The translations under genes and the position numbers were made by a program. The notes under the pieces were generated by a model. That model was not told the origin of the DNA. It was given only the letters and a program-made list of their open reading frames with translations, and did no database searches. Of a stretch of 64,000 nucleotides of DNA, positions 2,471-60,655 are shown piece by piece. The number at the start of each line of letters is the position of its first letter. The stretch's first letter is position 1. This DNA comes from Alphaproteobacteria bacterium (GTDB lineage Bacteria; Desulfobacterota; Binatia; UBA12015): contig JAFMJW010000003.1 of NCBI GenBank assembly GCA_017853315.1, forward strand, positions 4,537 to 68,536, read 5' to 3'.

Positions 2471-2474
<4 letters not shown>

Positions 2475-3751
2475 GCGGCCTCTCGTCGCTGCCTTGGGAG
2501 CTCCAGGTGGGCCTGCGCTACCTGCGCGCCCGCCGTCGCGAGAAGTTCGTCTCGCTGATCTCGCTGATCGCCGGACTCGGCGTCGCGATCGGCGTCATGA
2601 CGCTCTGCATCGTGATGGCGGTCATGACCGGCTTCGAGGAGGATCTCCGGGACCGGATCCTCGGCTTCAACCCGCACGTGGTGCTGCTGAGCCACGGCGG
2701 CACGCTCGACGACTCGCCCGAGACGCTCGCGAAGGTCGCCGGCACGCCGGGCGTCGCCGCGGCCGCCCCGTTCGTCTACAGCCAGGTGATGGCGACGACC
2801 GGGCAGGCCGTCGCGGGAGCGGTCGTCCGCGGCGTCGACCCGGCGCACGTCGACGACGTGATCGACGTCTCGAGCCACGTCCGCGAGGGGTCGGCGAAGC
2901 ACCTGGGCCAGCCGATGACGGTCCAGACGATCGTCGACGGCAAGGAGACCCCGGTCGAGGCGAACCGCATCGTGATCGGCTTCGAGTTGGCGAAGCTGCT
3001 CGGCGTCCGGGTCGGCGACTGGGTGAACCTCATGTCGCCGCAGGGTGCTGCGAGCGCGCTCGGCTTCGTGCCGAGGGTGAAGCGCTTCGCGGTCGGAGGC
3101 ATTTTCGACTCCGGGATGTACGAGTACGACTCGACGATCGTCTTTCTCGCGATGGCCGACGCCCAGCGGATGTTCGAGCTGGGGCGCCGCGTGACCGGCA
3201 TCGAGGTCAAGGTCGACGACGTGCACGCGGCCGACCGGGTTGCGCGCGCCCTCGAAGTGCGCGGCGGCTTCCCGCTGTTCGCCCGCGACTGGATGGAGGT
3301 GAACCGCAACCTCTTCGCGGCCTTCAAGCTCGAGAAGTTCATCCAGTTCGTCGTCCTGCTGCTCATCGTGCTGGTCGCCGCCTTCAACATCGCGGCGACG
3401 CTCATCATGGTCGTCATGGAGAAGCGCAAGGACATCGCGATCCTGAAGTCGATGGGGGCGACCAACGGGGCGATCGGCTGGATCTTCGTCTTCAAGGGGG
3501 CGGTGATCGGGGTGCTCGGCACCCTGCTCGGGATCGCCGGGGGGCTGGGCGGGGCCTGGCTCCTGCAGCGCTACAAGTTCATCGACCTGCCCAAGGACGT
3601 GTTCTACGTCTCGACGGTCCCGGTCCGGATCTACCCCTGGAACTTCGCCGCCGTCGCCCTCGCCTCGATCCTGATCTGCATCCTCGCCACCCTCTACCCG
3701 GCCCGGCAGGCGGCGCGACTCGCCCCGGTCGAAGTCATCCGCTACGAGTAG
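2471..3751 (+). CDS. lolE: Lipoprotein-release ABC transporter permease (LolC/E family; single permease, so LolF-type)
   Basis: GTG start at 2471 overlaps the lysS stop (GTGA). The protein has FtsX-type TM helices and a periplasmic MacB-like domain. Its C-terminal motif is EKRKDIAILKSMGATNGAIGWIFVFKGAVIGVLGTLLG. It occupies the 3' part of ORF-track entry 1328..3751. Confidence 0.85.
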
Positions 3752-3760
3752 GGCGGCGCG

Positions 3761-4459
3761 GTGGCCGGTTCGGGAGAGGAGAGCGGTCCCTACGTGTCCG
3801 CGCGCGGGCTGGTGAAGGAATTCACCGATGGCCCGCGCACGGTCCGGGTGCTCTCGGGGGTCGACTTCGGCATCGCCGCGGGGGAGACGGTCGCGATCGT
3901 GGGTGAGTCCGGAGTCGGCAAGAGCACGCTGCTGCACCTGTTGGGGGGGCTGGAGCGCCCGACGTCGGGCAGCGTGGCGATCGGGGGCGTCGATCTCGCC
4001 TCGCAGACCGACCGCGACCTCGCGCACTTCCGCAACCGCGAGATCGGGTTCGTCTTCCAGTTCCACCACCTCCTGCCCGACTTCACCGCGCTCGAGAACG
4101 TCGCCATGCCGGCGCTCATCGCGGGAGATCCCGCGGTCGATGCCCGCGAGCAGGCGGCCGCGCTGCTCGAGCGGGTGGGCCTCGCCGAGCGCATGACGCA
4201 CCGACCGGGAGAGCTCTCCGGCGGGGAACAGCAGCGCGTCGCGGTCGCGCGCGCCGTGGTCCGCAAGCCGGGCCTCGTGCTCGCCGACGAGCCGACGGGA
4301 AACCTCGACCCCGACACCGGCGACGAGGTCGAGCGCCTGCTTCTCGACCTGAACCGCGAGAACGGTACGACCTGCATCGTCGTCACCCACAGCGATCGCC
4401 TCGCGAGAGCGATGGACACCCGCTTCCGCCTGGTCCACGGACAGCTCGAGGTCGTATGA
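3761..4459 (+). CDS. lolD: Lipoprotein-release ABC transporter ATP-binding protein
   Basis: 232 aa with Walker [13 protein letters not shown] signature [14 protein letters not shown], and Walker [13 protein letters not shown]. Confidence 0.9.
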
Positions 4460-7245
4460 GTTCCATGTCCCCCGAGAACCGTGCCCGCAGCGTGCTCGTC
4501 GCCGTGCTCGCGACGGCGCTCGCGGGCTGCGCGGCGAAGACCCCGGCAGGGCGCGGGGCACCGCGGGCCGGCGCGGCGGCGCCGGGCGGGGACGTCGCGG
4601 TCTCTGCGCCTTCCTCCCCGGCCGCGGCCGAGGGACTGCTCTCGCGGCTGCTCTCGCCCATCGCCGGCCTGTGGCCCTTCGGCGGGGGGAAGGGCGACTC
4701 CGCGGAGTCCGCCGACCGCGCGTCCGGCTCCGGATCGATCGCCGCCGCGGCCGGCGGCTCCGACAAGGACCTGCCGCCCGACCCGTCGAAGGCGTCGGTG
4801 CTGCGCCCGAGTCGCCGTGCGCCCGATCCCGACCGGTGGCTCTCCTCGCAGCCCGGGCTGCGCAGCCCGCTGCCGCTGCTGGCGGTGGTCGAGCCGGTCC
4901 GCAGGGTGGCGTCCGCCGCCGACGCGGCGGAGCCCGAGAGCGGGTTCCACGGTCGCGCGCCGCGCGTCTCGGGCGACGCGCCCGTGATCGGCGCGATCGC
5001 GATCGAGGGCAATCACCGCGTCGACAAGGAGGCGATCCGCGTCCACGTGAAGAGCCGCGCGGGCGAGCCCTACGACGCGCAGCGCGCCGACGAGGACCTC
5101 CGCGCGATCTACGCGATGGGCTTCTTCGACGACGTGTCGGTCGACCTCGAGGAGGGAGCCGGCCGGCCCGCGCTCGTCTTCCACGTGAAGGAGCGTCCCT
5201 ACGTCTCCTCGGTGAAGGTCGAGGGCACCGACAGCCTGAAGAAGGAGGACGTCGAGACCGCGCTCAAGACCCGCCCGCGCACGATCCACGACCCCGAGAA
5301 GGTCCGTCGCGGCATCGCCGACGCGCGCAAGTTGGCCGAGGAGAAGGGCTACCTCGACGCGAAGATCACGCCGGTCCTGAAGCCGATCCCCGGCACCGAC
5401 GACGTCGAGCTCGTCTACCAGGTCGACGAGGGCCGCAAGATCCTCATCGCGGACCTCGAGTTCGAGGGCAACGAGCACTTCAGCGACCGCAAGCTCGCGG
5501 GCGTGATGCAGACCTCGGAGAAGGGCTGGCTCTCGTTCCTCACCGGGTCGGGGACGCTCAACCGCGAGATCCTGAAGACCGACGTCGAGCGGCTCACCGC
5601 CTTCTACTACGACGACGGCTACGTCGGCGTGAAGATCGACGAGCCCGAGGTCACGCGAGACGGCGACCGGCTGAAGGTGCGGATCAAGATCGACGAGGGC
5701 GATCAGTTCGACTTCGGCGAGATCAAGCTCTCCGGCGACGTCCCGCCCGGACCCGAGGCCGACGAACTCGCCAAGGAGATCCAGTCGAAGAAGGGCGAGA
5801 CCTTCCGGGCGAGCGCGCTCCGCGAGGACGTGACGACGCTCACCGACCTCCTCGGCGACCAGGGCTACGCGTTCGCGAACGTCGAGCCCGAGACGCTGGT
5901 CCGCCCCGAGGAGAAGACCGTCGACGTCGCCTTCCGCGTGAGCAAGGGCAAGCCCGTCACGATCGGGCAGATCGACGTCACCGGCAACACGAAGACCCGC
6001 GACAAGGTCATCCGCCGCGAGTTGCGCGTGGCCGAGCAGGAGCCGTTCTCGGCGACCCAGTTGCGCAAGAGCAAGGAGGCCCTGCAGCGCCTCGGGTTCT
6101 TCTCGGAGGTCGACGTCACGACCCGCAAGGGGGCGACCGACGACCAGATCGACCTCGCGGTCGACGTGAAGGAGGGCTCGACCGGCGCCTTCAGCGCGGG
6201 CGCGGGCTACAGCTCGGGCGACCAGTTCCTGTTCAACGTCCGGCTCTCGGAGAACAACCTCTTCGGCCGCGGCCAGCGCGCGGTGCTGAACGCCGACTTC
6301 GGCACCATCCGGCGCAACATCTACCTCTCGTACACCGAGCCCTACCTGTTCGACACGCGCCTGCTCGGCCAGGGCACGATCTTCAACACCGGGCTCAACT
6401 ACGGCGACTTCACCCGCTCGGCGACCGGCTTCTCCCTGCGCGCCCTCTACCCCTTCGAGGAGATCGGCTTCGGGCGTCTGGGGTGGCTCTCGCTCGAGGA
6501 CACGAGCTTCGGCCTCGAGTACCGGCTGGAACAGGCGCGGATCTACGACATCTCCTACAACGCGCCGCCGGCGATCTGGGCCGAGCAGGGCGAGACGGCG
6601 ATCTCGGCGATCTCGCCGCAGATCCTCCGCAACACGCTGAATCACGCCTACGACCCGACGTCGGGCTCGTTCCAGGACATCTCGTTCGAGTTCGCGGGGC
6701 TGGGCGGCGACCAGACCTACTGGCTCGCGCAGGCGCGCACGCGCTTCTTCTGGCCGATCTACCGGATCCGCGACTTCGGGGCGTTCGTCTACTCGATCGG
6801 CGGCACGGTGGCCTACGGCAAGGGCGAGGCCGGCCTCTCGGGCAACGAGATCCCGCTCGTCCAGCGCTTCTTCCCCGGCGGCATCAACACCGTCCGCGGC
6901 TACAACATGCGCACGCTGGGCCCGCGCCAGGACACCTACAACCCGCAGGGAATCGTGATCAACAACCGGCCGATCGGCGGCACGAACGAGCTCGTCGTCC
7001 AGAACGAGATCATCTTCCCGATCTTCCAGCCGATGGGCATCCGCGGCGTGGTCTTCTTCGACGCCGGCAACGCGTTCCTCCAGGCGCAGGGCATCGACTT
7101 CGGCGACCTTCGCTACGGCGTCGGGGCCGGCATCCGCTGGCTTTCGCCCTTCGGCCCGCTCCGCATCGAGTACGGCATCCCCTTGAACCTCCAGGACAAC
7201 GAGTCGAAGAGCTCGGTCATGTTCTCGTTCGGCGCGCCGCTGTGA
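4456..7245 (+). CDS. bamA: Outer membrane protein assembly factor BamA (Omp85) with an unusual ~160-aa N-terminal low-complexity extension carrying a lipobox
   Basis: 929 aa. The ATG at 4456 overlaps the lolD stop (ATGA). The N-terminus reads [16 protein letters not shown] (a lipoprotein-type signal with Cys), followed by an Ala/Gly/Pro/Ser-rich tract. POTRA repeats then start ([21 protein letters not shown]...), and a C-terminal Omp85 barrel ends the protein (...[27 protein letters not shown]). Confidence 0.9.
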
Positions 7246-7289
7246 CGGTCCCGCCGGCGCCGATTCCCCAGAAGAAGGAGAAGAAGTCC

Positions 7290-7820
7290 ATGAAGACGGT
7301 CAGCTCGGTGCGCATCGCGGCAGTCGCCCTCCTGGCGGTCGCGACCCTTCCGGTCGCGGTTCGCGCGGCGGAGACGAAGATCGCGGTCGTCGACCTGCAG
7401 CGCGCGCTGAACGAGTCCGAGGCGGGCAAGCGGGCCAAGTCGGACTTCAAGGTCCGGGCCGACAAGCTCGAGTCCCAGCTGAAGGGCCAGAAGGACGAGC
7501 TCGACCGCATCAAGAACGACTTCGAGGCCAAGCAGTCGGTGCTGAAGGACGAGGAGCGCCGGAAGCTCGCCACCGACTTCGAGAAGAAGCGGCTCGACCT
7601 GAAGACCAAGTTCGAGGAGGCGCAGGGCGAACTCGCCAAGCGCGACCAGGAACTGACCGCGCCGATCATGAAGGGCCTCCAGGAGACCATCAAGCAGATC
7701 GCGGAGGTCGAGGGCTTCTCCCTCGTACTCGAGTCGAACTCGGCGGGCGTGGTCTACCACCTGCCGAGCGTGGACATCACCGACCGCGTCCTGTCGGCGT
7801 ACAACGCCAAGGGCAACTGA
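7290..7820 (+). CDS. skp: Periplasmic chaperone Skp (OmpH)
   Basis: ATG at 7290 lies in frame in the 3' part of ORF 4671..7820. The signal peptide is MKTVSSVRIAAVALLAVATLPVAVRAAE. The body is a Lys/Glu-rich coiled coil (KIAVVDLQRALNESEAGKRAKSDFK...) and the gene sits in the classical bamA-skp position. Confidence 0.85.
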   Translation: MKTVSSVRIAAVALLAVATLPVAVRAAETKIAVVDLQRALNESEAGKRAKSDFKVRADKLESQLKGQKDELDRIKNDFEAKQSVLKDEERRKLATDFEKKRLDLKTKFEEAQGELAKRDQELTAPIMKGLQETIKQIAEVEGFSLVLESNSAGVVYHLPSVDITDRVLSAYNAKGN

Positions 7821-7843
7821 GCGGGCGGCCCGCCGGGAGCGAC

Positions 7844-9115
7844 GTGTCGGACGGCGACGACATCCTGCGGCTGCTCCCGCATCGGCATCCCTTCCTGCTG
7901 GTCGACCGCGTCCTCGAGTTCGAGGCCGGGAGCCGGCTGGTGGCGCTGAAGAACGTGACCGTGAACGAGCCGCAGTTCGCGGGTCACTTTCCCGGGCGCG
8001 CGCTCATGCCGGGGGTCCTCGTGTGCGAGGCGCTGGCGCAGGCCGGCGGGCTGCTCGTGCACGGCACTCTGAACGGCGACCTGCGCCCCGACAGGCCCGA
8101 CGCCGAGCGACCGTTCCTCGTGCTCTCGGGGATCGACGAGGCCCGCTTTCGGCGGCCGGTCGTCCCCGGCGACCAGATGCGGCTCGAGGTGGAGCTCCTG
8201 CGCAAGCGGCGCCCGGTCTGGAAGATCCGCGGCGTCGCGACGGTCGAAGGGCAGGTCGCGGTCGAAGCCTCGTTCTCGGCCGTCGAGACGGCGGGCCCGA
8301 CGACCGGCCGCGGCGGCGAGCCGCGCGCGGGCGCCGCGACGGAGATCCACCCGACGGCGATCGTGGAGCGCGGCGCCGAGCTCGACGAAGGGGTCGTGGT
8401 CGGCCCGTTCGCGACGATCGGGCCGGAGGTGCGGATCGGCGCCGGGACGAGGATCGGAGCCCACGTCGTGGTCGAGGGGCGGACGACGCTCGGCCGCGAC
8501 AACCGCGTGTTCCCCTTCGCGACCGTGGGCTGCGTCCCGCAGGACTTGAAGTTCCACGGCGAGCCCGGCCGGCTCGAGATGGGCGACCGCAACCTCGTGC
8601 GCGAGTACGCCTCGCTCTCGATCGGCACCGAGGGCGGCGGGCTCGTCACCCGCGTCGGCCACGACAACCTGTTCATGAACTACTCGCACCTGGGCCACGA
8701 CTGCCAGGTGGACGACCACGTGCACCTGGTGAACGGCGTCGCCGTGGCCGGGCACGTGTCGCTGGGCAGCCACTCGATCGTGTCCGGTCTCGCGGCGGTC
8801 GCGCAGTTCGCGCGGATCGGGGAGGGCGCCTTCATCGGCGGTGGGTCGATGGTGGTGATGGACGTCCCGCCGTTCTGCATGGCCAACGGCGACCGTGCCC
8901 GGCTGGTCGGGCTGAACGCGGTCGGGCTGGAGCGCCGTGGCTTCGACGCCGCGCGCATCTCGGCCCTCCGCCGGGCCTACAAGACGCTCTTCCAGTCGAA
9001 GTTGCTGGCCCGCGACGCGATCGCGAAGATCCGCGCCGAGCAGTCCGACTCGCCCGAGGCGATCGCGATGGCCGACTTCGTCGCCGCGAGCGAGCGCGGC
9101 GTGACGCGGCCCTGA
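7844..9115 (+). CDS. In-frame fusion: 3-hydroxyacyl-ACP dehydratase FabZ (residues ~1-153) joined to UDP-GlcNAc O-acyltransferase LpxA (residues ~168-423)
   Basis: One 423-aa ORF. The N-terminal half is a FabZ hot-dog domain (HRHPFLLVDRVLEFEAGSRLVALKNVTVNEPQFAGHFPGRALMPGVL). A short linker TAGPTTGRGGEPRAGAAT follows. The C-terminal half is LpxA, starting at its canonical N-terminus (EIHPTAIVERGAELDEGVVVGPFATIGP), with left-handed beta-helix hexapeptide repeats and a C-terminal RRGF...ISALRRAYKTLF region. There is no stop codon and no plausible internal start or RBS at the junction. Confidence 0.85.
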   Translation: MSDGDDILRLLPHRHPFLLVDRVLEFEAGSRLVALKNVTVNEPQFAGHFPGRALMPGVLVCEALAQAGGLLVHGTLNGDLRPDRPDAERPFLVLSGIDEARFRRPVVPGDQMRLEVELLRKRRPVWKIRGVATVEGQVAVEASFSAVETAGPTTGRGGEPRAGAATEIHPTAIVERGAELDEGVVVGPFATIGPEVRIGAGTRIGAHVVVEGRTTLGRDNRVFPFATVGCVPQDLKFHGEPGRLEMGDRNLVREYASLSIGTEGGGLVTRVGHDNLFMNYSHLGHDCQVDDHVHLVNGVAVAGHVSLGSHSIVSGLAAVAQFARIGEGAFIGGGSMVVMDVPPFCMANGDRARLVGLNAVGLERRGFDAARISALRRAYKTLFQSKLLARDAIAKIRAEQSDSPEAIAMADFVAASERGVTRP

Positions 9116-9119
9116 GGGC

Positions 9120-9971
9120 GTGGCGGTGGAGCGCAACGCCGCGCGTCTCGGCCTGATCGCGGGCAACGGGATCTTTCCGGTGCTGGTCGCGCGCGGGGCG
9201 CGCGAGGCCGGCGTCGAGGTCGTGTGCTGCGCGCACGTCGGCGAGTCGGATCCCGCGATCGAGGCCGAGGTCGACGCCTGCACCTGGGTGCGCGTGGGCG
9301 AACTCGGCCGCATCCTCCGGACGTTCAAGGAGGCCGGCTGCAGCAGCGCGGTCATGGCGGGGGGCATCACGAAGGTCCGCCTCTTCTCGGGCTTCCGGCC
9401 CGATCTGCGCGGTGCCGCCTTCCTCGCCCGCATGCGGACGCTGCACGACGACAAGCTCCTGGTCGGGATCGCGGACGAGCTCGCCGCCGAGGGCATCCCG
9501 GTGGTGGCCTCCACGCTCTACCTGCCGCGGCTCGTGCCCGAGCCGGGAGTGCTGGGGCGCCGCGGTCCGAAGTCGAAGGAGCGCGAGGACATCCGCTTCG
9601 GCCTGCGGGTCGCGAAGGCGATCGGCGCGTTCGAGATCGGGCAGACCGTGGTCGTGAAGGACGGGCTCGTCCTCGCGGTCGAGGCGGTCGAGGGCACCGA
9701 CGCCGCGATCCGCCGCGGGGCCGAGCTCGCGCGCCGGGGTGCGGTGGTCGTGAAGGTGGCGAAGCCGGGACAGGACCTTCGCTTCGACGTGCCGGCGGTC
9801 GGGCCGGCGACGATCCGCCTCATGGCCGAGACGCATGCGACGGTGCTCGCGGTGGAGGCGGGGCGCACGCTGCTCCTCGAGCGCGAGAGCCTGATCGCGC
9901 TCGCCGACATGGCGGGCATCGCGGTGGTCGCCGTGGAGGCCGAGCCCGACGCCTCGGGGGCGCTTGCGTGA
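9120..9971 (+). CDS. lpxI: UDP-2,3-diacylglucosamine hydrolase LpxI (DUF1009 family)
   Basis: 283 aa. N-terminal LGLIAGNGIFPVLVARGARE, positioned between lpxA and lpxB as in organisms that lack lpxH. No lpxH-like calcineurin phosphoesterase is in the window. Confidence 0.8.
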   Translation: MAVERNAARLGLIAGNGIFPVLVARGAREAGVEVVCCAHVGESDPAIEAEVDACTWVRVGELGRILRTFKEAGCSSAVMAGGITKVRLFSGFRPDLRGAAFLARMRTLHDDKLLVGIADELAAEGIPVVASTLYLPRLVPEPGVLGRRGPKSKEREDIRFGLRVAKAIGAFEIGQTVVVKDGLVLAVEAVEGTDAAIRRGAELARRGAVVVKVAKPGQDLRFDVPAVGPATIRLMAETHATVLAVEAGRTLLLERESLIALADMAGIAVVAVEAEPDASGALA

Positions 9972-10927
9972 GCGCGTCCGGCGAGCGGGCCCAGGGCGCC
10001 CCGTTGCGCGCGGCGGTCGTCGGCGCGGGCTACCTCGGGACCTTCCACGCCGAGAAGTACGCCGCGGCGCAGGGCTGCGAGCTGGTCGGCGTGGCCGACG
10101 TCGACCTGCCGCGTGCGCGCGCGCTCGGCGAGCGTCTCGGCTGCCGGGCCGTCGGGGACTTCCGCGAGCTGATCGGCTCGATCGACTGTGCGAGCGTGGT
10201 CGTGCCCACCGGGCACCACCGGGAGGTGGGCGAGGCCCTGCTGCGGGCCGGCGTGGACTGTCTCGTCGAGAAGCCGCTCGCCGCGAACTCCGGGGAGGCG
10301 GCGAGCCTCGTCGAGACGGCGCGCGCGGGTGGCCGCATCCTGCAGGTCGGCCACCTCGAGAGGTTCAACCCCGCGCTCACCCGTCTCGCGGGCGTCATCG
10401 ACCGGCCGCGCTTCATCGAGTGCCACCGGCTCGCGCCCTTCACGGTGCGCGGAGCCGACGTCGACGTGGTCCGCGACCTGATGATCCACGACCTCGACCT
10501 CGTCCGGCTCCTCGTGCCCGACGAGATCGTCTCGGTCGAGGCGGTCGGCGTGCCGGTGGTGACGCACCAGGTGGACATCGCCAACGCACGGCTGCGCTTC
10601 GCCGGGGGCTGCATCGCGAACGTGACGGCGAGCCGGGTGTCGGCCAAGCGCGAGCGCAAGCTGCGGCTGTTCCAGCCCGATCTCTACGTCGCGATCGACC
10701 TGGCCGAGCGCTCGGTCCGGATCTGTCGCCGCCGCGTCGACGAGCGCGGGCAGCCCGAGATCGCGTGGGAGCAGGTCGACCTCGGCGAGGCCGACGCGCT
10801 CGCGCGGGAGATTCACGCCTTCCTCGCCTCGGTGCGCACCCGGGCGCGACCCGCCGTCACCGGCGAAGACGGGCTCGCGGCGCTCGAACTCGCGGAGCGG
10901 GTGCTCCGCGTGATGGAGCAGGGGTGA
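9968..10927 (+). CDS. Gfo/Idh/MocA-family NAD(P)-dependent oxidoreductase (GnnA-like)
   Basis: GTG at 9968 overlaps the lpxI stop (GTGA). It has an N-terminal Rossmann motif AAVVGAGYLGTFHAEKY and an EKPLA motif typical of the family. The gene is embedded in the lpx operon. Confidence 0.8.
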   Translation: MSASGERAQGAPLRAAVVGAGYLGTFHAEKYAAAQGCELVGVADVDLPRARALGERLGCRAVGDFRELIGSIDCASVVVPTGHHREVGEALLRAGVDCLVEKPLAANSGEAASLVETARAGGRILQVGHLERFNPALTRLAGVIDRPRFIECHRLAPFTVRGADVDVVRDLMIHDLDLVRLLVPDEIVSVEAVGVPVVTHQVDIANARLRFAGGCIANVTASRVSAKRERKLRLFQPDLYVAIDLAERSVRICRRRVDERGQPEIAWEQVDLGEADALAREIHAFLASVRTRARPAVTGEDGLAALELAERVLRVMEQG

Positions 10928-12165
10928 CGGCGCTCCCGCCGCGGGGGCGGTCGGCGGCCGCGATCCTCGACGACCTCGATCGTCTCTCGCGCGACGACGT
11001 CGACTGGCGGTCGGGCCGCGCCTTCAGCCTCGCCTACCACGCGGGCCCGGACGTCGAGGCGCTCGCGGAGCTCGCGCACGCGCGCTTCGCCGGCTCGAAC
11101 ATGCTGAACGTGGCCGCCTTCCCGAGCCTGCGCGCGATGCAGGCGGACGTGCTCGCGATGGTCGGGGACCTCCTGCACGCGGGGCCGGCCGCTGCCGGCT
11201 CGATCACCTCGGGCGGCACCGAGAGCCTGCTCCTCGCGGTGAAGGCGGCCCGCGGGCTCGCGCGCGCCGAGCGCGGCGTCGAGCGCCCCCGCATGGTCCT
11301 GCCCACGACCGCGCACGCGGCCTTCGAGAAGGCCGCTGCCGACTACGGCGTCGAGAGCGTGCGCGTCCCGGTCGGTCCCGACTTCCGCGCGGTGCCCGCG
11401 GCGATCGAGGCCGCGATCGACGACGACACGGTGCTGGTCGCGTGCTCCGCGCCGTCCTACCCGCAGGGGGTGGTCGACCCGGTCGCGGAGATCGCGGCAG
11501 TCGCCGCGTCGCGCGGGCTGCCGTGTCACGTGGACGCGTGCATGGGCGGGCTCGTGCTGCCGATGCTCGAGCGGGCGGGCGAGCCCGTGACGCCGTTCGA
11601 CTTCCGGGTGCCGGGGGTGACGTCGATGTCGGTCGACCTCCACAAGTACGGATACGCGCCGAAGGGCGTTTCGGTCCTGCTGCACCGCGACAAGCGCCGC
11701 CGCAGCTTCCAGGCGTTCTCGACCGACAACTGGCTCGGCGGCTTCTACGGCAGCCTGGGCGTGCTCGGCACCCGCGGCGGCGGCCCGCTCGCGGCGGCGT
11801 GGGCGGTGATGAACCGGCTCGGAGCCGAGGGCTACCTCGGGCTCGCGAGCGAGGCTCGCGCCGCCACGCTCGAGCTCGCCGGGGCGCTCCGGGAGCGGCG
11901 CGGCGTGCGGCTGCTCGCGCCGCCCGACGCGACGCTGCTCGCGTTCGGGTTCGACGACGCCGACGCGTTCGCCGTCGGGGCCGCGCTCGCCCGACGCGGC
12001 TTCTGGGTCGACCAGCAGTCTCCGCCGCCGAGCCTCCACTGCACGGTCAACGCCGTCCACCGAGGAGTGATCTGCGATTTCCTCGCAGCTCTCGACGAGG
12101 CGCACGAGGAGGTGCGACGGAGCGGCAGCCGGGCGGAGGCGAAGGCCTATGGCCGCGCCGAGTGA
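10924..12165 (+). CDS. PLP-dependent group II decarboxylase-fold enzyme of the sphingosine-1-phosphate lyase (SPL) subfamily; function unknown
   Basis: GTG at 10924 overlaps the oxidoreductase stop (GTGA). Key motifs are SITSGGTESLLLAVKAARG and the PLP-lysine segment VDLHKYGYAPKGVSVLLHRD, matching the SPL/Dpl1 hallmark HKYG[FY]APKG. Its 3' end overlaps the lpxB start. Confidence 0.8.
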   Translation: MTALPPRGRSAAAILDDLDRLSRDDVDWRSGRAFSLAYHAGPDVEALAELAHARFAGSNMLNVAAFPSLRAMQADVLAMVGDLLHAGPAAAGSITSGGTESLLLAVKAARGLARAERGVERPRMVLPTTAHAAFEKAAADYGVESVRVPVGPDFRAVPAAIEAAIDDDTVLVACSAPSYPQGVVDPVAEIAAVAASRGLPCHVDACMGGLVLPMLERAGEPVTPFDFRVPGVTSMSVDLHKYGYAPKGVSVLLHRDKRRRSFQAFSTDNWLGGFYGSLGVLGTRGGGPLAAAWAVMNRLGAEGYLGLASEARAATLELAGALRERRGVRLLAPPDATLLAFGFDDADAFAVGAALARRGFWVDQQSPPPSLHCTVNAVHRGVICDFLAALDEAHEEVRRSGSRAEAKAYGRAE

Positions 12166-13327
12166 CGTCTCGCACGGGCGCGCGCCGACGGTCCTCGTCG
12201 TCGCGGGCGAGGCGTCGGGCGACCTCCGCGGCGCGGAACTGGTCGCGGAGCTGCGTGCGCTCGTGCCCGGGCTGCGGGTGACCGGCGTCGGCGGCGAGCG
12301 CCTGCGCGCGCAGGGACAGGAGGCGATCGTCGACGCGGAGGAGATCTCGACGATGGGCCTGACCGAGGTCTTCTCGAGCGTCGGCCGCATCCTCGGGGCC
12401 TTCCGGCGGGTGCGCGACGCGATCGAGGGGCCGGCGGGCGAGCGCCCGGACCTCGTCGTGCTGATCGACCTGCCGGACTTCAACCTGCGACTCGCCCCGG
12501 TCGCGAAGCGGGCCGGGGTGCCCGTCCTCTACTACGTGAGCCCGCAGGTCTGGGCCTGGCGTCGCTGGCGGGTCCGGCAGCTCGCGCGCAACGTCGACCG
12601 CCTCGCGGTCGTCTTCCCGTTCGAGGAGGAGATCTACCGCGGGCTCGCGGACGTGACCTTCGTCGGCCATCCCGCGCTCGACACCGTGCGACCCTCGCGG
12701 CCGGCGGCCGAGACCCGCGCCCGTCACGGGCTCGACCCGGAGCGCCCGCTGGTGGCGCTGCTCCCCGGCAGCCGCGTCGCCGAGGTGCGCTCGCTCCTGC
12801 CCGAGATGGCCCGCGCGATCGACGTCCTGCGGGCCGACGTCCCGGTCGACGCGGTGGTCGCGCTCGCCAACGAGGGCCTGCGCCCGCTGGTCTCGCCGTT
12901 CGTCGGCCGCATGCCGGTCGTGACCGGCGAGACCTGGGACCTGGTCGCCGCTTCGGACCTGGTGCTCTGCGCCTCGGGGAGCGCGACGCTGGAGACCGCG
13001 CTGCTCGAGCGCCCGATGGTCGTCTCCTACCGCCTCTCGCCGCTCACCTGGGCGGTCGCCCGCCTGCTCGTGCGGGTCCCGTTCGTCGCGATGCCCAACC
13101 TGGTCCTCGGACGGCGCGCCGTGCCGGAGCTCCTGCAGGGGGACGCGACCGCGGTCCGGATGGCGGCCGAGGCGCGCTCGATCCTGCTCGAGCCCGGTCG
13201 CGCGGAGGCGATGCGGGCCGACCTCGCGACCGTGCGCGCGCGCCTCGGCGAGGGCGGCGCGGCCCGGCGTGCGGCCGTGATCGCGGCCGACATGCTGCGC
13301 GGGCGCGACCGGACCTCCGCGTCCTAG
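12149..13327 (+). CDS. lpxB: Lipid-A-disaccharide synthase
   Basis: 392 aa with N-terminal VLVVAGEASGDLRGAELV and an LpxB-like GT-B fold (PDFNLRLAPVAKRAGVPVLYYVSPQVWAWR). Confidence 0.9.
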   Translation: MAAPSDVSHGRAPTVLVVAGEASGDLRGAELVAELRALVPGLRVTGVGGERLRAQGQEAIVDAEEISTMGLTEVFSSVGRILGAFRRVRDAIEGPAGERPDLVVLIDLPDFNLRLAPVAKRAGVPVLYYVSPQVWAWRRWRVRQLARNVDRLAVVFPFEEEIYRGLADVTFVGHPALDTVRPSRPAAETRARHGLDPERPLVALLPGSRVAEVRSLLPEMARAIDVLRADVPVDAVVALANEGLRPLVSPFVGRMPVVTGETWDLVAASDLVLCASGSATLETALLERPMVVSYRLSPLTWAVARLLVRVPFVAMPNLVLGRRAVPELLQGDATAVRMAAEARSILLEPGRAEAMRADLATVRARLGEGGAARRAAVIAADMLRGRDRTSAS

Positions 13328-13412
13328 GTCGTCGCGCAGGCGCTCGGCGATCGAGCCCGCGAGGTCGCGTGGTTTGTCCGCCGCGGCGCTCTTCGCTACC
13401 CGACGGAGAGGC

Positions 13413-15260
13413 ATGGCGTCCACGGGGGTCTACCGCAGGCTGCTCGGCTACATGCGCCCCTACGTCTGGCCGCGCTTCGTGGCCGCGGTCGCCTGCATGC
13501 TGCTGTTCAGCGCGACGAACGGCATCCTGCCGTTTCTCGTCGAGCGGGTGTTCGACGACGTCTTCGCCCGCCACGACCTGGGCATGCTCGCGTGGCTCCC
13601 GGCCGGCGTGATCCTCCTGTTCGGGGTCCGCGCGCTCACGAACTACGGCAACAACTACCTGATGGAGTGGGTGGCCCAGAAGGTCGTGACCGACATCCGC
13701 GACGACGTGAACGCGCGGGTGCAGGAGCTGCCGCTCTCGTTCTTCAACCGCACTCCCACCGCGGCGATCGTCTCGCGGGTCTCGAGCGACGTCTACCAGC
13801 TGCGCAGCTCGCTCGTGGACGCGACCATCTCGATCGTCCGCGACTCGACCTCGCTGGTCGTGCTGCTGGTCTACGCGTTCTGGAAGGACACGGTCCTCGC
13901 GCTGATCGCGTTCGTCGCGTTTCCCCTGGTCGTGGCGCCGGTGCTCTCGCTGTCGCGAAAGCTCCGGAAGTTCTCGCGCAGCGGCCAGAACCAGCTCGGC
14001 GCCCTGACGGCGCTCCTGCAGGAGACGGTGCAGGGCAACCGGATCGTGAAGGCCTTCGGCATGGAGGCCTACGAGCGTGCCCGCTTCGACGCCGAGAGCG
14101 ACCGGCTGTTCCGCCTGCACATGAAAGCCTCGCAGGCGAAGGCGCTGATCCAGCCGCTCATGGAACTGATCGGCGCGATCGGGATCGCCGGCGTCGTCTG
14201 GTACGGCGGCTACAGCGTGATCGTCGGCGGGCGCACGCAGGGAGCGTTCTTCGCCTTCATGGCGACGCTGCTCCTGGTCTACGATCCGTTCAAGGGGCTC
14301 GCGAAGACGAACAGCGCGCTCCAGCAGGGGCTCGCCTCGGCGGAGCGGATCTTCGAGCTGCTCGACGAGCCGACGGAGATCGAGGACCGCCCCGGCGCGG
14401 TCGAGATCCCGCCGCTCGCCGACGCGATCCGCTTCGAGGGCGTCGACTTCCGCTACCCGGCCCGCGTCGGCGAGGACGGGCCCGCCGCCGCCTCGCCGCA
14501 GGCGGCCGGCCCCGAGGCGGACGCGCCCCGGGCCGGGGACGGGTTCGCGCTGCGCGGGATCGACCTCGAGCTGCGCCGGGGCGAGGTCGTGGCGCTGGTC
14601 GGCTCGAGCGGCGGGGGCAAATCGACGATCGCGGACATGATCCCGCGCTTCTGGGACCCGACCGAGGGCAGGATCACGATCGACGGCGTCGATCTCCGCG
14701 ACGCGACGCTCGCCTCGCTGCGCAGGCAGATCGGGATCGTCACCCAGTTCACCTTCCTCTTCAACGACACCGTCGGCGCCAACATCTCCTACGGGAACCC
14801 GGCGACGGACCGCGCCGAGGTGGAGGCGGCGGCGCGCGCGGCGCACGCGCACGAGTTCATCGTCGAGCTCCCGCGCGGCTACGACACGGTGGTCGGCGAG
14901 CTCGGCGTCACCCTCTCCGGCGGCCAGCGCCAGCGGCTCGCGATCGCGCGCGCGCTGCTCAAGAACGCCCCGATCCTGATCCTCGACGAGGCGACCTCGG
15001 CGCTGGACTCCGAGTCCGAGCGCCTGGTGCAGGATGCGATCGACCGGCTCATGGAGGGGCGCACCGTGCTGGTGATCGCCCACCGTCTCGCGACCATCCG
15101 GCGCGCCGACCGCATCGCGGTCGTGGTCGGCGGTCGCATCGTCGACGAGGGCAGCCACGAGGATCTGTATCGCCGCGGGGGCGTCTACCGGCGGCTGTGC
15201 GACCAGCAGATGTCGCCCGGCGCGGAGGCGACGCCGGTGGGGGAAGCCCTGCCGTCATGA
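13413..15260 (+). CDS. msbA: Lipid A export ABC transporter (fused TMD-NBD) MsbA
   Basis: Six-helix TMD followed by an NBD with Walker A GSSGGGKST, signature LSGGQRQRLAIARA, and Walker B ILILDEATSALD. The ATG at 13413 is preceded by GGAGAG; the ORF track also allows an upstream TTG at 13374. Confidence 0.9.
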   Translation: MASTGVYRRLLGYMRPYVWPRFVAAVACMLLFSATNGILPFLVERVFDDVFARHDLGMLAWLPAGVILLFGVRALTNYGNNYLMEWVAQKVVTDIRDDVNARVQELPLSFFNRTPTAAIVSRVSSDVYQLRSSLVDATISIVRDSTSLVVLLVYAFWKDTVLALIAFVAFPLVVAPVLSLSRKLRKFSRSGQNQLGALTALLQETVQGNRIVKAFGMEAYERARFDAESDRLFRLHMKASQAKALIQPLMELIGAIGIAGVVWYGGYSVIVGGRTQGAFFAFMATLLLVYDPFKGLAKTNSALQQGLASAERIFELLDEPTEIEDRPGAVEIPPLADAIRFEGVDFRYPARVGEDGPAAASPQAAGPEADAPRAGDGFALRGIDLELRRGEVVALVGSSGGGKSTIADMIPRFWDPTEGRITIDGVDLRDATLASLRRQIGIVTQFTFLFNDTVGANISYGNPATDRAEVEAAARAAHAHEFIVELPRGYDTVVGELGVTLSGGQRQRLAIARALLKNAPILILDEATSALDSESERLVQDAIDRLMEGRTVLVIAHRLATIRRADRIAVVVGGRIVDEGSHEDLYRRGGVYRRLCDQQMSPGAEATPVGEALPS

Positions 15261-16027
15261 GCGGCGAGCGCGGCATCGGGCCGGGCGGGCGCTCGCGCCG
15301 GCCGGGCCTGCGGCGCCTGCGGGACGGGGAGTTCGCGCTCGCGGCCGGGGGCTTCGCCATCTGGGCCGCGCTCCGCCTGCTGGGTGCGACCACGCGCCGC
15401 CGGTTCGTCGACCGCGGGGGGCTGCTGGAGCGCTTCGCGAGCGGCGAGCCGGCCGTCCTCTGCTTCTGGCACGGCCGCATGGTCATGATGCCGTTTGCCT
15501 ACTTCGGTCGGGGCGCCTGCATCATGAACAGCGCCCACCGCGACGGCGAGCTCATCAGCCGCGCGATCCGCCGCATGGGCATCGAGACCGTGCGCGGATC
15601 CTCGACGCGCGGCTGGGTGGGCGGCATGAAGGGACTGCTCGCCGCGCACCGGCGCGGCCGCGACGTGATCGTCGTGCCCGACGGCCCCCGCGGGCCGAGG
15701 TGCCGCGCGAAGACCGGGGCGCTGCAGCTCGCGCGCGCGACCGGCGCCCCGATCTGGCCGGTCTCCTACGCAGCCGACCGGGCGAAGGTGGTCTCGCGCA
15801 GCTGGGACCGCATGCTCCTGCCGCTGCCGTTCGCGCGCGTCGCCTACGTGTCGGGGCCGCCGATCGAGGTGCCGCGCGACGCGGGGCCGGAGGAGGTCGA
15901 GGCCTTGCGGCTCGAACTCGAGGCGCGGCTCGACGAGGCGACGCGCGAGGCCGGCCGGATCGTCGGCGCGGATCCGCGGGAGACCGAGGCGTTCCTGCGC
16001 GGGGTTGCGGGCACGGCGGAATCGTGA
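15257..16027 (+). CDS. DUF374-domain protein (lysophospholipid acyltransferase-like), commonly associated with kdtA
   Basis: The ATG at 15257 overlaps the msbA stop (ATGA). The 256-aa protein carries the conserved FWHGRMVMMPF...HRDGELISRAIRRMGIETVRGSS...VVPDGPRGP block typical of DUF374. Confidence 0.75.
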   Translation: MSGERGIGPGGRSRRPGLRRLRDGEFALAAGGFAIWAALRLLGATTRRRFVDRGGLLERFASGEPAVLCFWHGRMVMMPFAYFGRGACIMNSAHRDGELISRAIRRMGIETVRGSSTRGWVGGMKGLLAAHRRGRDVIVVPDGPRGPRCRAKTGALQLARATGAPIWPVSYAADRAKVVSRSWDRMLLPLPFARVAYVSGPPIEVPRDAGPEEVEALRLELEARLDEATREAGRIVGADPRETEAFLRGVAGTAES

Positions 16028-16097
16028 AAATCGCGAGTTCCGTCCCGGGCGTGCGCTCCGGCGCGCCTGGGCCCTCGCGCTCCGGGGAGGAAGGATC

Positions 16098-16640
16098 ATG
16101 AGGAGGTTCGTGGGTCGGCTCGCATGCGCGGTTCTCGCCGCGCTCGCCGTGTCGAGCGGTCCGGTCGCCCGGGCGGCCGCGGCCGACGGGCTGTCCGTCG
16201 CGATCGAGCCGCCGTCGCCGGAGTACGAGGCCGAGCGGGCCCGCCGCGACGATCGCGCCGCGAAGGCGGGGGGGAAGACCGCGGCCACGTCGCCCGCGGC
16301 GAAGGTCGAGGACCTGCAGCGGACCTTCGCGTCGTTCTGCACGGGCTGGGCCGGGAAGCTGCGCCAGCGGCAGACGGACAACCTCGCGCAGGCGAAGTGG
16401 CAGACCGGGGGCGACGGATCGGTCTACGCCGAGTACGTCGGCTACGACACCGACCACCTGGGTCCGCAGACGGTCACCCACCCGGACACGAACCCGATCG
16501 GCAAGATGGTGTACGTCGAGCAGAGGCTGCGGCGCTCGGGTCGCTCGAAGGAGGAGGCGCTCGCCGCGCAGCCTTCGATCGTCGACCAGGTCGAGGTGAC
16601 CGAGATCTTCCGCTACGACGGGCGGGGTTGGGTCTACTGA
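16098..16640 (+). CDS. Hypothetical secreted protein
   Basis: Internal ATG at 16098 preceded by GGAGGAAGGA. The signal peptide is MRRFVGRLACAVLAALAVSSGPVARAAAA. I do not recognise a family. Confidence 0.5.
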   Translation: MRRFVGRLACAVLAALAVSSGPVARAAAADGLSVAIEPPSPEYEAERARRDDRAAKAGGKTAATSPAAKVEDLQRTFASFCTGWAGKLRQRQTDNLAQAKWQTGGDGSVYAEYVGYDTDHLGPQTVTHPDTNPIGKMVYVEQRLRRSGRSKEEALAAQPSIVDQVEVTEIFRYDGRGWVY

Positions 16641-17938
16641 GCCGTCCGCGCACGCGCCGCCTCCCGTCGCTACGCGCGTACAACGCGCTGCTGGTCGCCG
16701 CCGGCGCGGCGGCGGCTCCGGCCGCGGGCGTGCTCGCCCTCGCCAGGCCCGGCTGGCGGCGGGGACTCGGCGATCGCCTGGGCCGCGGCTGGCGTCGGCC
16801 GGCCGGGCATCCCGTCCTCTGGGCGCACGCGGCCTCGGTCGGCGAGGTCGAGGGCCTGGTTCCGCTGGTCGAGCGGTGGCGCGAGCGGCACCCGCGCGGA
16901 GGCGTGGTCGCCTCCTCGCTCACCGCCACCGGGGCCGACGCGGCGAGGCGCAGGCTGCCGGGCGTCGACGTGCGGGTGCTGCCGCTCGACGTGCCCTGGC
17001 TGGTCCGCTCGGTCGTGCGCCGCGTCGCGCCGGACCTCTTCCTGTTCAGCGAGAACGAGATCTGGCCGAACCTGCTGCGGGAACTCGCGCGACGAGGCTG
17101 CCCGACGGTCCAGGTGAGTGGGCGGATGTCGGAGCGCGCCTCGCGCACGCTGGGCCGCTTTCCTCGCTTCGCGGCCGACCTGCTGGGCTGCGTGTCCCTG
17201 TTCTGCGTCCAGGGGGAGGACCACCGCCGGAGGCTCCTCTCCCTGGGCGTCCGCGAGGACCGGGTGGTCGTCACGGGTTCGCTGAAGGGCGACGGCGTCG
17301 CCGCCGAGCCGCCGTGGTTCGTGCCGACGCTGCGCGACGCGGGACGGCCGGTGTTCGTCGCGGGCGCGACGCGGCCGGGCGAGGAGTCGGTGATCTTGGA
17401 CGCATGTTCGTCCCTCGCGCCGGGTGCGCCGCTGCTCGTGCTCGCTCCGCGTCACCCGGAGCGGTTCGACGAGGTGGCGCGACTCGCGGCCGGTCGCGGG
17501 CTGCGCGTCCTGCGGCGCAGCGCGCTGCGCGAGCCCGAGTCCTTCGACCCGGCCGCAGTCGACGTCTTCCTGCTCGACTCCCTGGGCGAGCTCGCGGGCG
17601 TGTACGCCGCGGCGGACGTCGCCTTCGTCGGAGGGACCCTCGTCCCGGTCGGCGGCCACAACCTGCTCGAAGCCGCGCGGGCAGGCGTGCCGGTGGTGGT
17701 GGGCCCGCACCGCGAGAAGGTCCTCGCGTTCTCGGACGCGCTCGTCGCGGCCGGCGCGGGCGCGGTCGTGCCCGACGCGGACGGGCTCGCCGACGCGCTG
17801 CGACGTTTCCTCGCACCGGGGGCGGGACGTCTCGCGGGAGAGGCGGCGCGAACTCTCGCCGCGCGCGAGTCCGGCGGACTCGAGGCGACGTGGCGGGCGA
17901 TCGAGTCGCTCGAGGCTTCGCGCGTGGGCGAGGCCTGA
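16628..17938 (+). CDS. waaA: 3-deoxy-D-manno-octulosonic acid (Kdo) transferase
   Basis: Lies in the 3' part of ORF 16124..17938. The KdtA N-terminal pattern is LRAYNALLVAAGAAAAPAAGVL...VLWAHAASVGEVEGLVPLVE, and the C-terminal GT-B fold includes GGTLVPVGGHNLLEAARAGVPVVVGPH. The start is uncertain. TTG at 16628 is the nearest in-frame candidate, since no ATG or GTG lies close upstream. Confidence 0.8.
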   Translation: MGLLSRPRTRRLPSLRAYNALLVAAGAAAAPAAGVLALARPGWRRGLGDRLGRGWRRPAGHPVLWAHAASVGEVEGLVPLVERWRERHPRGGVVASSLTATGADAARRRLPGVDVRVLPLDVPWLVRSVVRRVAPDLFLFSENEIWPNLLRELARRGCPTVQVSGRMSERASRTLGRFPRFAADLLGCVSLFCVQGEDHRRRLLSLGVREDRVVVTGSLKGDGVAAEPPWFVPTLRDAGRPVFVAGATRPGEESVILDACSSLAPGAPLLVLAPRHPERFDEVARLAAGRGLRVLRRSALREPESFDPAAVDVFLLDSLGELAGVYAAADVAFVGGTLVPVGGHNLLEAARAGVPVVVGPHREKVLAFSDALVAAGAGAVVPDADGLADALRRFLAPGAGRLAGEAARTLAARESGGLEATWRAIESLEASRVGEA

Positions 17939-17940
17939 GC

Positions 17941-19095
17941 ATGGAGGCCTCGCGCCGTCCGCCCTGGGAGAGGGGCGCGCTCGTCCAGGCTCTCGCGTGG
18001 CCGGTGGGGCTGGCCTTCGGCGCCGTCGCGCGGGCGCGCGGCGCCGCGTTCGACGGCGGGCTCCTGCACAGCGTCCGGCTCGACGTGCCGGTCGTGTCGA
18101 TCGGCAACCTGAGCGTCGGCGGCACGGGGAAGACCCCGGCGGCGCTCTGGCTCGGCGCGAGGCTCCGTTCGCTCGGGTGGACGCCCGCGATCGTGACCCG
18201 CGGCTACGGCGGGCAACTCGGCGGACGCGTCCTGCGCGCAGCCGCTCCCGGGGCGACGGCAGGCGAAGGGTGGGGTGACGTCGCCGCGGTGGGCGACGAG
18301 GCCGTGCTGCTCGCGGAGCGCTTCCCGGGACCGGTCGTCTGCGGCGTCGACCGGGTCGCCGCCGCGCGCCAGGCGATCGAGCGGTGGGGCGCGGATCTCG
18401 TGGTGCTCGACGACGGCTTCCAGCATCGGCGGCTCGCACGATGCTTCGACCTGGTCCTGGTCGACGGGGGAGCCGGCCTCGGCAACGGGCGGGTGCTGCC
18501 CGCGGGACCGCTGCGCGAGCCCGCTTCCGCGTTGCGCCGCGCCGACGCGATCGTCGCGACCAAGGTCGAATCGCTTCCACCCGCGCTCGAGCGCGAGCTC
18601 GGGCACCTGGCGCCGGGCGTGCCGATCTTTCATGCGGCCCTCGAGCCTCGCTGCCTGGTCGCGGCCGAAGGTCCGGCGACGATCGAGCGGCCGCTCGCGG
18701 ACGTCGCCGGGCGCGCGGTGGTCGCGGTTTCGGGGCTCGCCCGGGCCGAGTCGTTCTGGCAGGCGCTCGACCGCCTGGGCGCCCGGGTCGTCGAGGTGAT
18801 GGAGTACCCCGACCACCATGCATACTCGCACGCCGACTGGCAGCGGATCGGTCACGCCGGGAGGTCGGCCGACCTGGTGGTCTGCACCGAGAAGGACCTC
18901 GTGAAGCTGCGACGGTTCCCGTTCGCCCGCGGAGGGCTGCTCGCCGTGCGGGTCGACTTCGCGCTCGCTGCCGAGGCGGAGCGCGACCTCGTCGACCGGA
19001 TCCTCCTGCGGACCGGGTCGGGTGCACGGCTGCGCGACGAAGGCGGCCGTGTTACCCCGACGGTTCGTCGCCCCGTGCCGGACGCGGGCGTCTGA
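17941..19095 (+). CDS. lpxK: Tetraacyldisaccharide 4'-kinase
   Basis: ATG at 17941, 3 nt after the waaA stop. P-loop SIGNLSVGGTGKTP. The typical kdtA-lpxK synteny is present. Confidence 0.85.
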   Translation: MEASRRPPWERGALVQALAWPVGLAFGAVARARGAAFDGGLLHSVRLDVPVVSIGNLSVGGTGKTPAALWLGARLRSLGWTPAIVTRGYGGQLGGRVLRAAAPGATAGEGWGDVAAVGDEAVLLAERFPGPVVCGVDRVAAARQAIERWGADLVVLDDGFQHRRLARCFDLVLVDGGAGLGNGRVLPAGPLREPASALRRADAIVATKVESLPPALERELGHLAPGVPIFHAALEPRCLVAAEGPATIERPLADVAGRAVVAVSGLARAESFWQALDRLGARVVEVMEYPDHHAYSHADWQRIGHAGRSADLVVCTEKDLVKLRRFPFARGGLLAVRVDFALAAEAERDLVDRILLRTGSGARLRDEGGRVTPTVRRPVPDAGV

Positions 19096-19149
19096 GAGCG
19101 TCCGTCGCGGTCGCCGGGGCCTCCGGGGCGCGGACGGGAAGGTGGATCG

Positions 19150-20100: not shown

Positions 20101-20110
20101 GGAGGAATCC

Positions 20111-60602: not shown

Positions 60603-60655
60603 CTCGGGCGGTATCGCGGCCGGGCGGACGCGACCCCCGGACCCTAGCACGGGGC

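Follow-up and report, generated by a model that had tools for sequence, protein, structure and literature searches.

A pyridoxal 5′-phosphate (PLP)-dependent enzyme of the sphingosine-1-phosphate lyase (SPL) family is encoded within the lipid A operon of an uncultured Binatia bacterium (assembly GCA_017853315.1), in the 64,000-nucleotide stretch analyzed here as the window (contig JAFMJW010000003.1, positions 4,537 to 68,536 of the forward strand). The enzyme itself is of a known kind, and its gene has an unusual and conserved position, just before lpxB and after a gnnA-like dehydrogenase gene. This placement is real and is conserved in one subclade of Candidatus Binatia down to an SPL identity of 67%. 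The account that we lean toward, with some reservation, is that the protein is an ordinary short-form SPL-type lyase (EC 4.1.2.27-type) that is co-expressed with the lipid A genes.

An SPL-family enzyme between a GnnA-like gene and lpxB

A sequence-only reading of the window had placed two genes between lpxI and lpxB at 9968-12165, and both were confirmed by the coordinates of the open reading frames (ORFs), by a frame plot of GC content at third codon positions (GC3) and by Pfam domains. At a window GC content of ~74%, the GC3 plot shows clean coding phases along the long + strand gene run, and both ORFs (9968-10927 and 10924-12165) are in coding phase. The two genes and their junctions are as follows:

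9968-10927, + strand: Gfo/Idh/MocA NAD-dependent dehydrogenase, GnnA-like, 319 aa, GTG start (Pfam Gfo/Idh/MocA N- and C-terminal domains: PF01408, PF22725, PF02894)
10924-12165, + strand: PLP enzyme of the SPL family, predicted to be a short soluble form, 413 aa, GTG start (Pfam Pyridoxal_deC (PF00282), phmmer, Foldseek)
9968-9971, + strand: GTGA overlap of the lpxI stop and the dehydrogenase start (read from sequence)
10915-10927, + strand: GGAG Shine-Dalgarno-like motif (10915-10918), 5-nt spacer and GTGA overlap of the dehydrogenase stop and the SPL start (10924-10927; read from sequence)
12149-12165, + strand: SPL 3′ end overlapping the lpxB 5′ end by 17 nt (read from sequence)

Sequence and structure comparisons place the PLP protein in the SPL clade of fold-type-I PLP enzymes and not among the amino-acid decarboxylases. 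A phmmer search against the PDB returned human SPL (E-value 5.3e-91), StSPL (1.2e-85), Aspergillus SPL (6e-79), Burkholderia S1PL2021 (3.3e-76) and yeast Dpl1 (8e-70) at 308-239 bits, compared to 108 bits for the decarboxylase MfnA (3.4e-30) and 71 bits for glutamate decarboxylase (GAD; 6e-19). An AlphaFold2 monomer model (predicted local distance difference test score 91, predicted template-modeling (TM) score 0.90) was matched by Foldseek to human SPL and StSPL with TMq values of 0.92-0.94 and root-mean-square deviations of 1.9-2.1 Å, and to decarboxylases with TM values of 0.80-0.85. Identity as an amino-acid decarboxylase was rejected on these score gaps and on the presence of SPL-specific residues. 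Scores against the NCBIfam equivalogs were 209 bits for MfnA (cut-off 299.4), 98 for GAD (cut-off 380) and 48 for 2,4-diaminobutyrate decarboxylase (cut-off 900), MfnA being the top match because no SPL model was among the NCBIfam matches returned. Pfam gave no support for membership in the GnnB-type family, with PF01041 (DegT) scoring 17.6 bits, below its cut-off of 19.8, and a lookup of the protein sequence for an exactly identical entry found no match. The assignment made in the sequence-only reading, an SPL-type protein with the hallmark HKYGYAPKG, was thus borne out by phmmer, Foldseek and the motif itself, and the Pfam families it had pointed to (PF01408/PF02894 in the dehydrogenase, PF00282 in the PLP protein) were all found. 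The N-terminus aligns to human Lys114 and to about residue 70 of StSPL, where the ordered SPL core begins; the N-terminal transmembrane or hydrophobic segment of eukaryotic SPLs and StSPL is absent, and the upstream frame is taken by the dehydrogenase gene. As judged from this alignment, the protein is a short, soluble (cytoplasmic) form of SPL that lacks the N-terminal membrane anchor.

The predicted active site was mapped by aligning residues to the key SPL residues in Table 3 of PMC6148460. Both quoted motifs, SGGTESLLLAVKA (aa 96-108) and HKYGYAPKG (aa 240-248), are present. The PLP lysine, K241, is kept in an H-K motif with H240, as are the PLP phosphate cup (G98-T99), the His/Cys sandwich (H131 and C206), D204, the Asp that faces the pyridine nitrogen, and the substrate-phosphate residues Tyr38, Asn59 and Lys247 (human Tyr150, Asn171 and Lys359). 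Two of the mapped positions differ from the human enzyme: Asn62 stands in place of human His174, as it does across the whole short subfamily, and Thr283 in place of Ser395, family-wide. Burkholderia S1PL has Gln in place of human His174 and is still active (PMC6148460). Near the C-terminus lies an A-Y-G motif (Tyr409-Gly410) shared by 113 of 120 family members; its likeness to the C-terminal Tyr of SPLs suggests a possible equivalence. At all 13 PLP-binding, catalytic and phosphate-binding positions that were checked, the lpx-embedded group carries the same residues as 113 relatives (62-69% identity); just five diagnostic positions set it apart, and these include no residue known to act in catalysis or binding. 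The operon copy therefore shows no sign of a new activity. Neofunctionalization of this copy was considered as well and is unsupported, as the five lineage-specific positions all lie outside the known functional residues.

The sequence-only reading had described 4-bp overlaps to both neighbors; this holds for the GTGA shared by lpxI and the dehydrogenase gene, as a GTGA also joins the dehydrogenase and SPL genes, whereas the SPL/lpxB overlap measures 17 nt. The lpxB ATG lies at 12149 and the SPL-gene TGA at 12163-12165, and the GTG at 12162 is not in the lpxB frame. In the window, the codons for the C-terminal Tyr-Gly of the SPL, TAT GGC, form the lpxB ATG. The SPL gene is under purifying selection, since its dN/dS of 0.19-0.20 (against two relatives) is the same as that of lpxB and bamA.

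Conservation of the operon placement and of its neighbors

Synteny with the lpx genes, which the sequence-only reading had proposed to examine, was found in related genomes as well, with the SPL gene again between the dehydrogenase gene and lpxB; the combination that would have spoken against that reading, firm clustering with housekeeping decarboxylases and no lpx synteny in relatives, was thus not observed. The junctions in the window and in the related loci (L and P numbers) are as follows:

Window: SPL reference; dehydrogenase-SPL overlap of 4 bp; SPL-lpxB overlap of 17 nt
L001-L003: SPL 85% identical to the window; dehydrogenase-SPL overlap of 4 bp; SPL-lpxB overlap of 17 nt
L006: SPL 78%; dehydrogenase-SPL overlap of 1 nt (TGATG); SPL-lpxB TATGG arrangement as in the window
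L166: SPL 77-78%; dehydrogenase-SPL junction off the contig; SPL-lpxB overlap of 17 nt
L169: SPL 68%; dehydrogenase-SPL gap of 687 bp with 151-nt inverted repeats; SPL-lpxB gap of 10 nt
L172: SPL 67%; dehydrogenase-SPL gap of 66 bp; SPL-lpxB overlap of 17 nt
P0011 contig: SPL 69%; opposite-strand gene of 580 aa inserted between dehydrogenase and SPL; SPL overlaps the next gene, whose identity is not on record, by 4 bp

The stable coupling is that of SPL to lpxB and not that of the dehydrogenase to SPL, because the dehydrogenase-SPL junction is disrupted in L172, L169 and the P0011 contig. The TATGG arrangement at the SPL/lpxB junction recurs in L001, L006, L166 and L172; in L169, the C-terminal Tyr codon is TAC and lpxB begins 10 nt past the SPL stop. 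The divergence of the SPL follows that of its neighbors, with SPL/lpxB identities to the window of 85/87% in L001, 78/81% in L006 and 68/74% in L169. In the sister Binatia L086, L170 and L171, the dehydrogenase gene and lpxB adjoin each other directly, with a 4-bp overlap in L170 and L171, and the order lpxI-dehydrogenase-lpxB occurs there without an adjoining aminotransferase gene. A neighbor-joining tree recovered the core lpx-embedded group with 100% bootstrap; in a test of single origin, all known lpx-embedded copies were separated from the non-lpx copies in just 8 of 100 replicates.

Two of these loci have features of their own. The inverted repeat pair in the 687-bp gap of L169 (6997-7147 and 7380-7530) is 87% complementary with an internal hairpin in each arm, and looks like a miniature inverted-repeat transposable element, a repetitive extragenic palindromic element or an insertion scar. 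L006 (CAMBZJ010000009.1) is a contig of a high-GC lake metagenome-assembled genome; the contig's genes are 75-89% identical to those of the window, so its public label of 'Klebsiella pneumoniae' is wrong.

In the wider family, 409-413-aa homologues number in the thousands. All five of the 113 active-site-identical relatives with an examined context (L004, L005, L007, L167 and L168; 63-67% identity) lie outside lpx clusters, in unrelated contexts with genes such as msrA, PhyH, a fatty-acid desaturase or a glutathione S-transferase. At 44-58% identity, members of the family are present in Actinomycetota, Chloroflexota, Myxococcota and haloarchaea, and none of these has an lpx neighbor. Neighborhood clustering of 80 genome loci with SPL homologues confined lpx neighbors to the close relatives, and among the Actinomycetota loci it gave no convincing conserved operon, the neighbors being FKBP, WhiB-like, threonine-aldolase-like and luciferase-like genes.

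Some of these other contexts recur. The non-operon Binatia-type copies L004, L167 and L168 share their surroundings, with msrA or a PhyH dioxygenase gene upstream, a convergent gene for a 310-aa protein of unknown family downstream, a fatty-acid desaturase gene nearby, and PGI and transketolase genes further along. In eight Chloroflexota loci (L038, L039, L042, L054, L056, L070, L071 and L072), a gene for an MFS_2 (PF13347) transporter lies on the same strand 190-350 bp downstream of the SPL homologue, a possible substrate-uptake partner for the family.

The best NCBIfam match of the 319-aa dehydrogenase is NF040723, UDP-N-acetylglucosamine (UDP-GlcNAc) 3-dehydrogenase, an archaeal equivalog that it matches with 176 bits against a cut-off of 450, and homologues at 84% and 76% identity carry NCBI labels that place the organism in Candidatus Binatia. 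The context of its homologues was surveyed in 80 metagenome loci. In about three-quarters of these the homologue comes after lpxI or lpxA, and in 33 lpxB is closely downstream, many contigs stopping short of that point. A gene for a DegT-type aminotransferase directly follows the dehydrogenase gene in seven loci (L094, L100, L102, L108, L122, L135 and L158), five of which (L094, L100, L108, L135 and L158) continue directly with lpxB; the top NCBIfam matches of this DegT-type protein are PseC, WecE and ArnB. The resulting compact arrangement, lpxA-gnnA-gnnB-lpxB, includes a DegT gene at 5936-7033 in L094. Because a DegT gene adjoins its homologues in these seven loci, in gnnA-gnnB order, the dehydrogenase is most plausibly an orthologue of GnnA and probably a UDP-GlcNAc 3-dehydrogenase, in agreement with the GnnA-like Gfo/Idh/MocA protein of about 319 aa that the sequence-only reading had described.

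An SPL gene was found in none of these 80 loci. The likeness between the window SPL gene and the DegT-type gnnB, each standing after gnnA and before lpxB, is one of position only. No DegT homologue was detected in the 64-kb window by tblastn with the L094 GnnB (best E-values 1.5-2.7) or in the flanks of L001-L006, and Pfam/NCBIfam scans, which took in about 40 window proteins and left out about 13 housekeeping-size ORFs, also returned no DegT. In some genomes, gnnA and gnnB can be unlinked (PMC5644692).

Proposed role and rival explanations

The family membership, the conserved active site, the conserved operon placement and the purifying selection are established by the comparisons above; the substrate, the products and the physiological role of the enzyme are inferred. 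The substrate would be a 1-phospho-2-amino-3-hydroxy lipid, that is, a long-chain-base phosphate or a near analogue, whose free amine would displace Lys241 from PLP and whose phosphate would be gripped by Tyr38, Asn59, Asn62 and Lys247. Retro-aldol cleavage between C2 and C3 would then release a fatty aldehyde and phosphoethanolamine. The SPL gene, free-standing elsewhere, lies in the lipid A operon in one Candidatus Binatia subclade, immediately before lpxB and after the GnnA-like gene, and its translational coupling to lpxB would cause the SPL to be made along with the lipid A enzymes. In the operon it most likely serves envelope-lipid turnover, or is co-expressed as a housekeeping enzyme, rather than catalyzing a step of the Raetz pathway. 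The sequence-only reading had seen here a partner of the GnnA-like enzyme and a candidate for undescribed lipid A chemistry. Neither is supported: the stable coupling is to lpxB, the 13 active-site positions are as in the 113 relatives, and Actinomycetota, Chloroflexota and haloarchaea have more distant homologues.

Several points weigh against an ordinary lyase of this kind. A lineage-specific Ser-to-Leu change at aa 278 lies in the loop that bears Thr283, and the phosphate-site His-to-Asn change together with the absent N-terminal segment could shift specificity. We know of no member of the short SPL subfamily with a known substrate. The scanned window proteins include no sphingolipid-synthesis gene (Spt-type oxoamine synthase), Binatia are not known as sphingolipid makers, and a literature search on Binatota and sphingolipids found nothing relevant. 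The tight, conserved coupling to lpxB is also hard to explain without a functional link to lipid A. A search for literature linking an SPL gene with lpxB or an lpx operon likewise found none.

Among the rival explanations, replacement of GnnB by a non-orthologous enzyme, as proposed in the sequence-only reading, would have the SPL-fold protein transaminate the UDP-3-keto-GlcNAc made by its GnnA-like neighbor, giving UDP-GlcNAc3N and 2,3-diamino lipid A. The SPL gene does occupy the very slot that a DegT gene holds between the dehydrogenase gene and lpxB in five of the 80 loci, with two further loci having DegT directly after the dehydrogenase gene, and neither the window nor the L001-L006 flanks contain a DegT homologue. 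The active site, however, is that of a phosphate-binding retro-aldol lyase, the same as in the 113 relatives, and distant homologues are present in organisms that lack lipid A; the conserved junction is SPL-lpxB and not dehydrogenase-SPL; the DegT score falls below threshold; and most lpxI-dehydrogenase-lpxB loci, those of the sister Binatia included, have no adjoining aminotransferase, with unlinked gnnA and gnnB known from some genomes. We therefore regard this replacement as very improbable. Use of the SPL active site on a small phospho-amine, for example in decarboxylation of O-phosphoserine or in a reversed aldol reaction, would supply phosphoethanolamine or an amino-lipid to decorate lipid A, 3-deoxy-D-manno-octulosonic acid (Kdo) or the outer membrane. 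Consistent with this, the protein has the same fold as group II decarboxylases (209 bits to MfnA; TM 0.82-0.85), the product site of SPL binds phosphoethanolamine (PMC10243590), the coupling to lpxB is conserved, and the operon has two Kdo/WaaP-family kinase-like genes and several glycosyltransferase genes. The SPL-specific Tyr38, Lys247 and C-terminal Tyr-Gly are nevertheless kept, scores to the decarboxylase equivalogs are far under their cut-offs, and the SPL family is common in monoderm bacteria. Known lipid A phosphoethanolamine transferases, moreover, draw on phosphatidylethanolamine as donor and not on free phosphoethanolamine. Together, these points make such a reaction unlikely.

The SPL gene could also be a neutral passenger that moved or was inserted between overlapping operon genes and has been kept only because its disruption would abolish lpxB translation, with no link to the envelope. 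The ancestral state, seen in the sister lineages, is a 4-bp overlap between lpxB and the dehydrogenase gene, the start codon of lpxB is now embedded in the SPL coding sequence, repeat elements or an inserted gene are found at the upstream junction in relatives, and related SPL genes stand in unrelated contexts, all of which is consistent with this explanation. It does not account for the whole-gene dN/dS of 0.19-0.20 and the invariant catalytic residues, which point to selection on the protein beyond read-through, or for the retention of the arrangement down to 67-68% SPL identity, and we hold it to be rather unlikely. We also consider it improbable that the SPL-type enzyme takes an active part in outer-membrane lipid biogenesis in this Binatia subclade, whether by turnover of a sphingoid or amino-lipid phosphate coupled to lipid A disaccharide synthesis, by acting on a 1-phosphorylated lipid A precursor with a free amine, or by replacing GnnB. 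The first of these would echo the interplay of lipid A and anionic sphingolipids in Caulobacter (PMC9393093).

The locus bears on a wider question. SPL homologues are scattered in bacteria without known sphingolipids and have no known native substrates there, and a homologue translationally locked to lpxB across a clade is a testable hint of an envelope-lipid role for at least some of them. If a functional link exists, lipid A biogenesis would gain, in an uncultured phylum, a PLP-dependent step or a connection to sphingoid lipids, and if GnnB replacement or an outer-membrane lipid role were true, a previously unknown PLP-dependent step would be tied to the Raetz pathway. With no such link, the locus would be a clean case of gene capture by an essential operon, the captured gene's own conserved codons now supplying the start codon of the gene downstream.

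The envelope-gene cluster and comparison with known systems

The two genes belong to a one-strand run of envelope genes. From lolD to lpxK, a promoter/terminator scan detected neither a sigma-70-like promoter nor an intergenic terminator-like site on the + strand, and scans for Rfam families and tRNAs yielded nothing of relevance. The cluster and the neighboring lipid A genes are as follows:

2471-20293, + strand: envelope cluster with lolCE, lolD, bamA, skp, fabZ-lpxA, lpxI, gnnA-like, SPL, lpxB, msbA, DUF374, hypothetical, waaA, lpxK, epimerase and Trm112-like genes (Pfam/NCBIfam)
7844-9115, + strand: fabZ-lpxA fusion, 423 aa, an upstream operon member (Pfam FabA at aa 11-142 and Hexapep/Acetyltransf_11)
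9120-9971, + strand: lpxI (UDP-2,3-diacylglucosamine hydrolase), 283 aa (Pfam LpxI_N 1.2e-36, LpxI_C 1e-49)
12149-13327, + strand: lpxB (lipid-A-disaccharide synthase), 392 aa (Pfam LpxB 1.6e-88)

The LpxI product scores 162 bits against the NCBIfam LpxI model, under its cut-off of 400. The fabZ-lpxA fusion exceeds the cut-offs of both the LpxA equivalog (334 bits) and the FabZ equivalog (167 bits), with its FabA-like domain at aa 11-142 and LpxA at aa 166-422. It is called as a single gene in the Binatia loci L001 and L169-L172 as well, and forms one continuous match in L006, L086 and several more distant loci. It directly follows skp, and neither lpxD nor lpxC was seen among the scanned window proteins. 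Between the DUF374 gene and waaA, an ORF of ~150-210 aa at 16005-16640 has no Pfam or NCBIfam match; a gene is called at the equivalent place in L001, L170 and L171. Core-sugar transferase and kinase genes come after the epimerase gene of the cluster (Pfam/NCBIfam), and two neighboring Kdo/WaaP-family kinase-like genes lie at 22067-24363, the second of which (516 aa) is fused to a family-2 glycosyltransferase domain. Further away on the − strand, at 59466-60659, a membrane protein of the lysyl-phosphatidylglycerol-synthase-TM family (PF03706) adjoins a D-serine-dehydratase-like PLP enzyme (60656-61648), both unrelated to the SPL.

When compared to characterized systems, the window SPL shares its fold and Pfam family PF00282 with archaeal MfnA and GAD, although its sequence and structure scores to these are far below those to SPLs. 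As in the GnnA/GnnB route to UDP-GlcNAc3N of Acidithiobacillus, Leptospira and Mesorhizobium, the window has a GnnA-type dehydrogenase gene in the usual lpx position (PMC5644692), but the slot before lpxB, filled by a DegT-type GnnB in other lineages, holds an SPL-fold enzyme without detectable similarity to GnnB (tblastn E-value 2.7). The closest likeness is to StSPL (PDB 3MAD/3MAU) and human SGPL1 (PDB 4Q6R/8AYF), with 38-41% identity over the entire catalytic core, TM values of 0.92-0.94, and a shared PLP lysine in the HK motif, PLP phosphate cup, His/Cys sandwich, substrate-phosphate Tyr/Asn/Lys and C-terminal Tyr-Gly. The window protein differs from them in its N-terminus, which is shorter by ~65 residues than that of StSPL and by ~113 than that of the human enzyme and has no membrane anchor, in the changes of His174 to Asn and Ser395 to Thr (human numbering), in ending four residues past Tyr-Gly and in the placement of its gene within a lipid A operon. 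Burkholderia pseudomallei S1PL2021 (BPSS2021, PDB 5K1R), at 37-38% identity, is also soluble with hardly any N-terminal extension (query residue 4 corresponds to chain residue 23), and comes from a host in which sphingolipid synthesis is not known. Unlike the window SPL gene, its gene is associated with pathogen virulence, is thought to target host sphingosine-1-phosphate and lies outside an lpx operon. It cleaves sphingosine-1-phosphate in vitro despite the Gln at the phosphate-site His position (PMC6148460), and because it is active with almost no N-terminal segment, that segment is dispensable for SPL activity.

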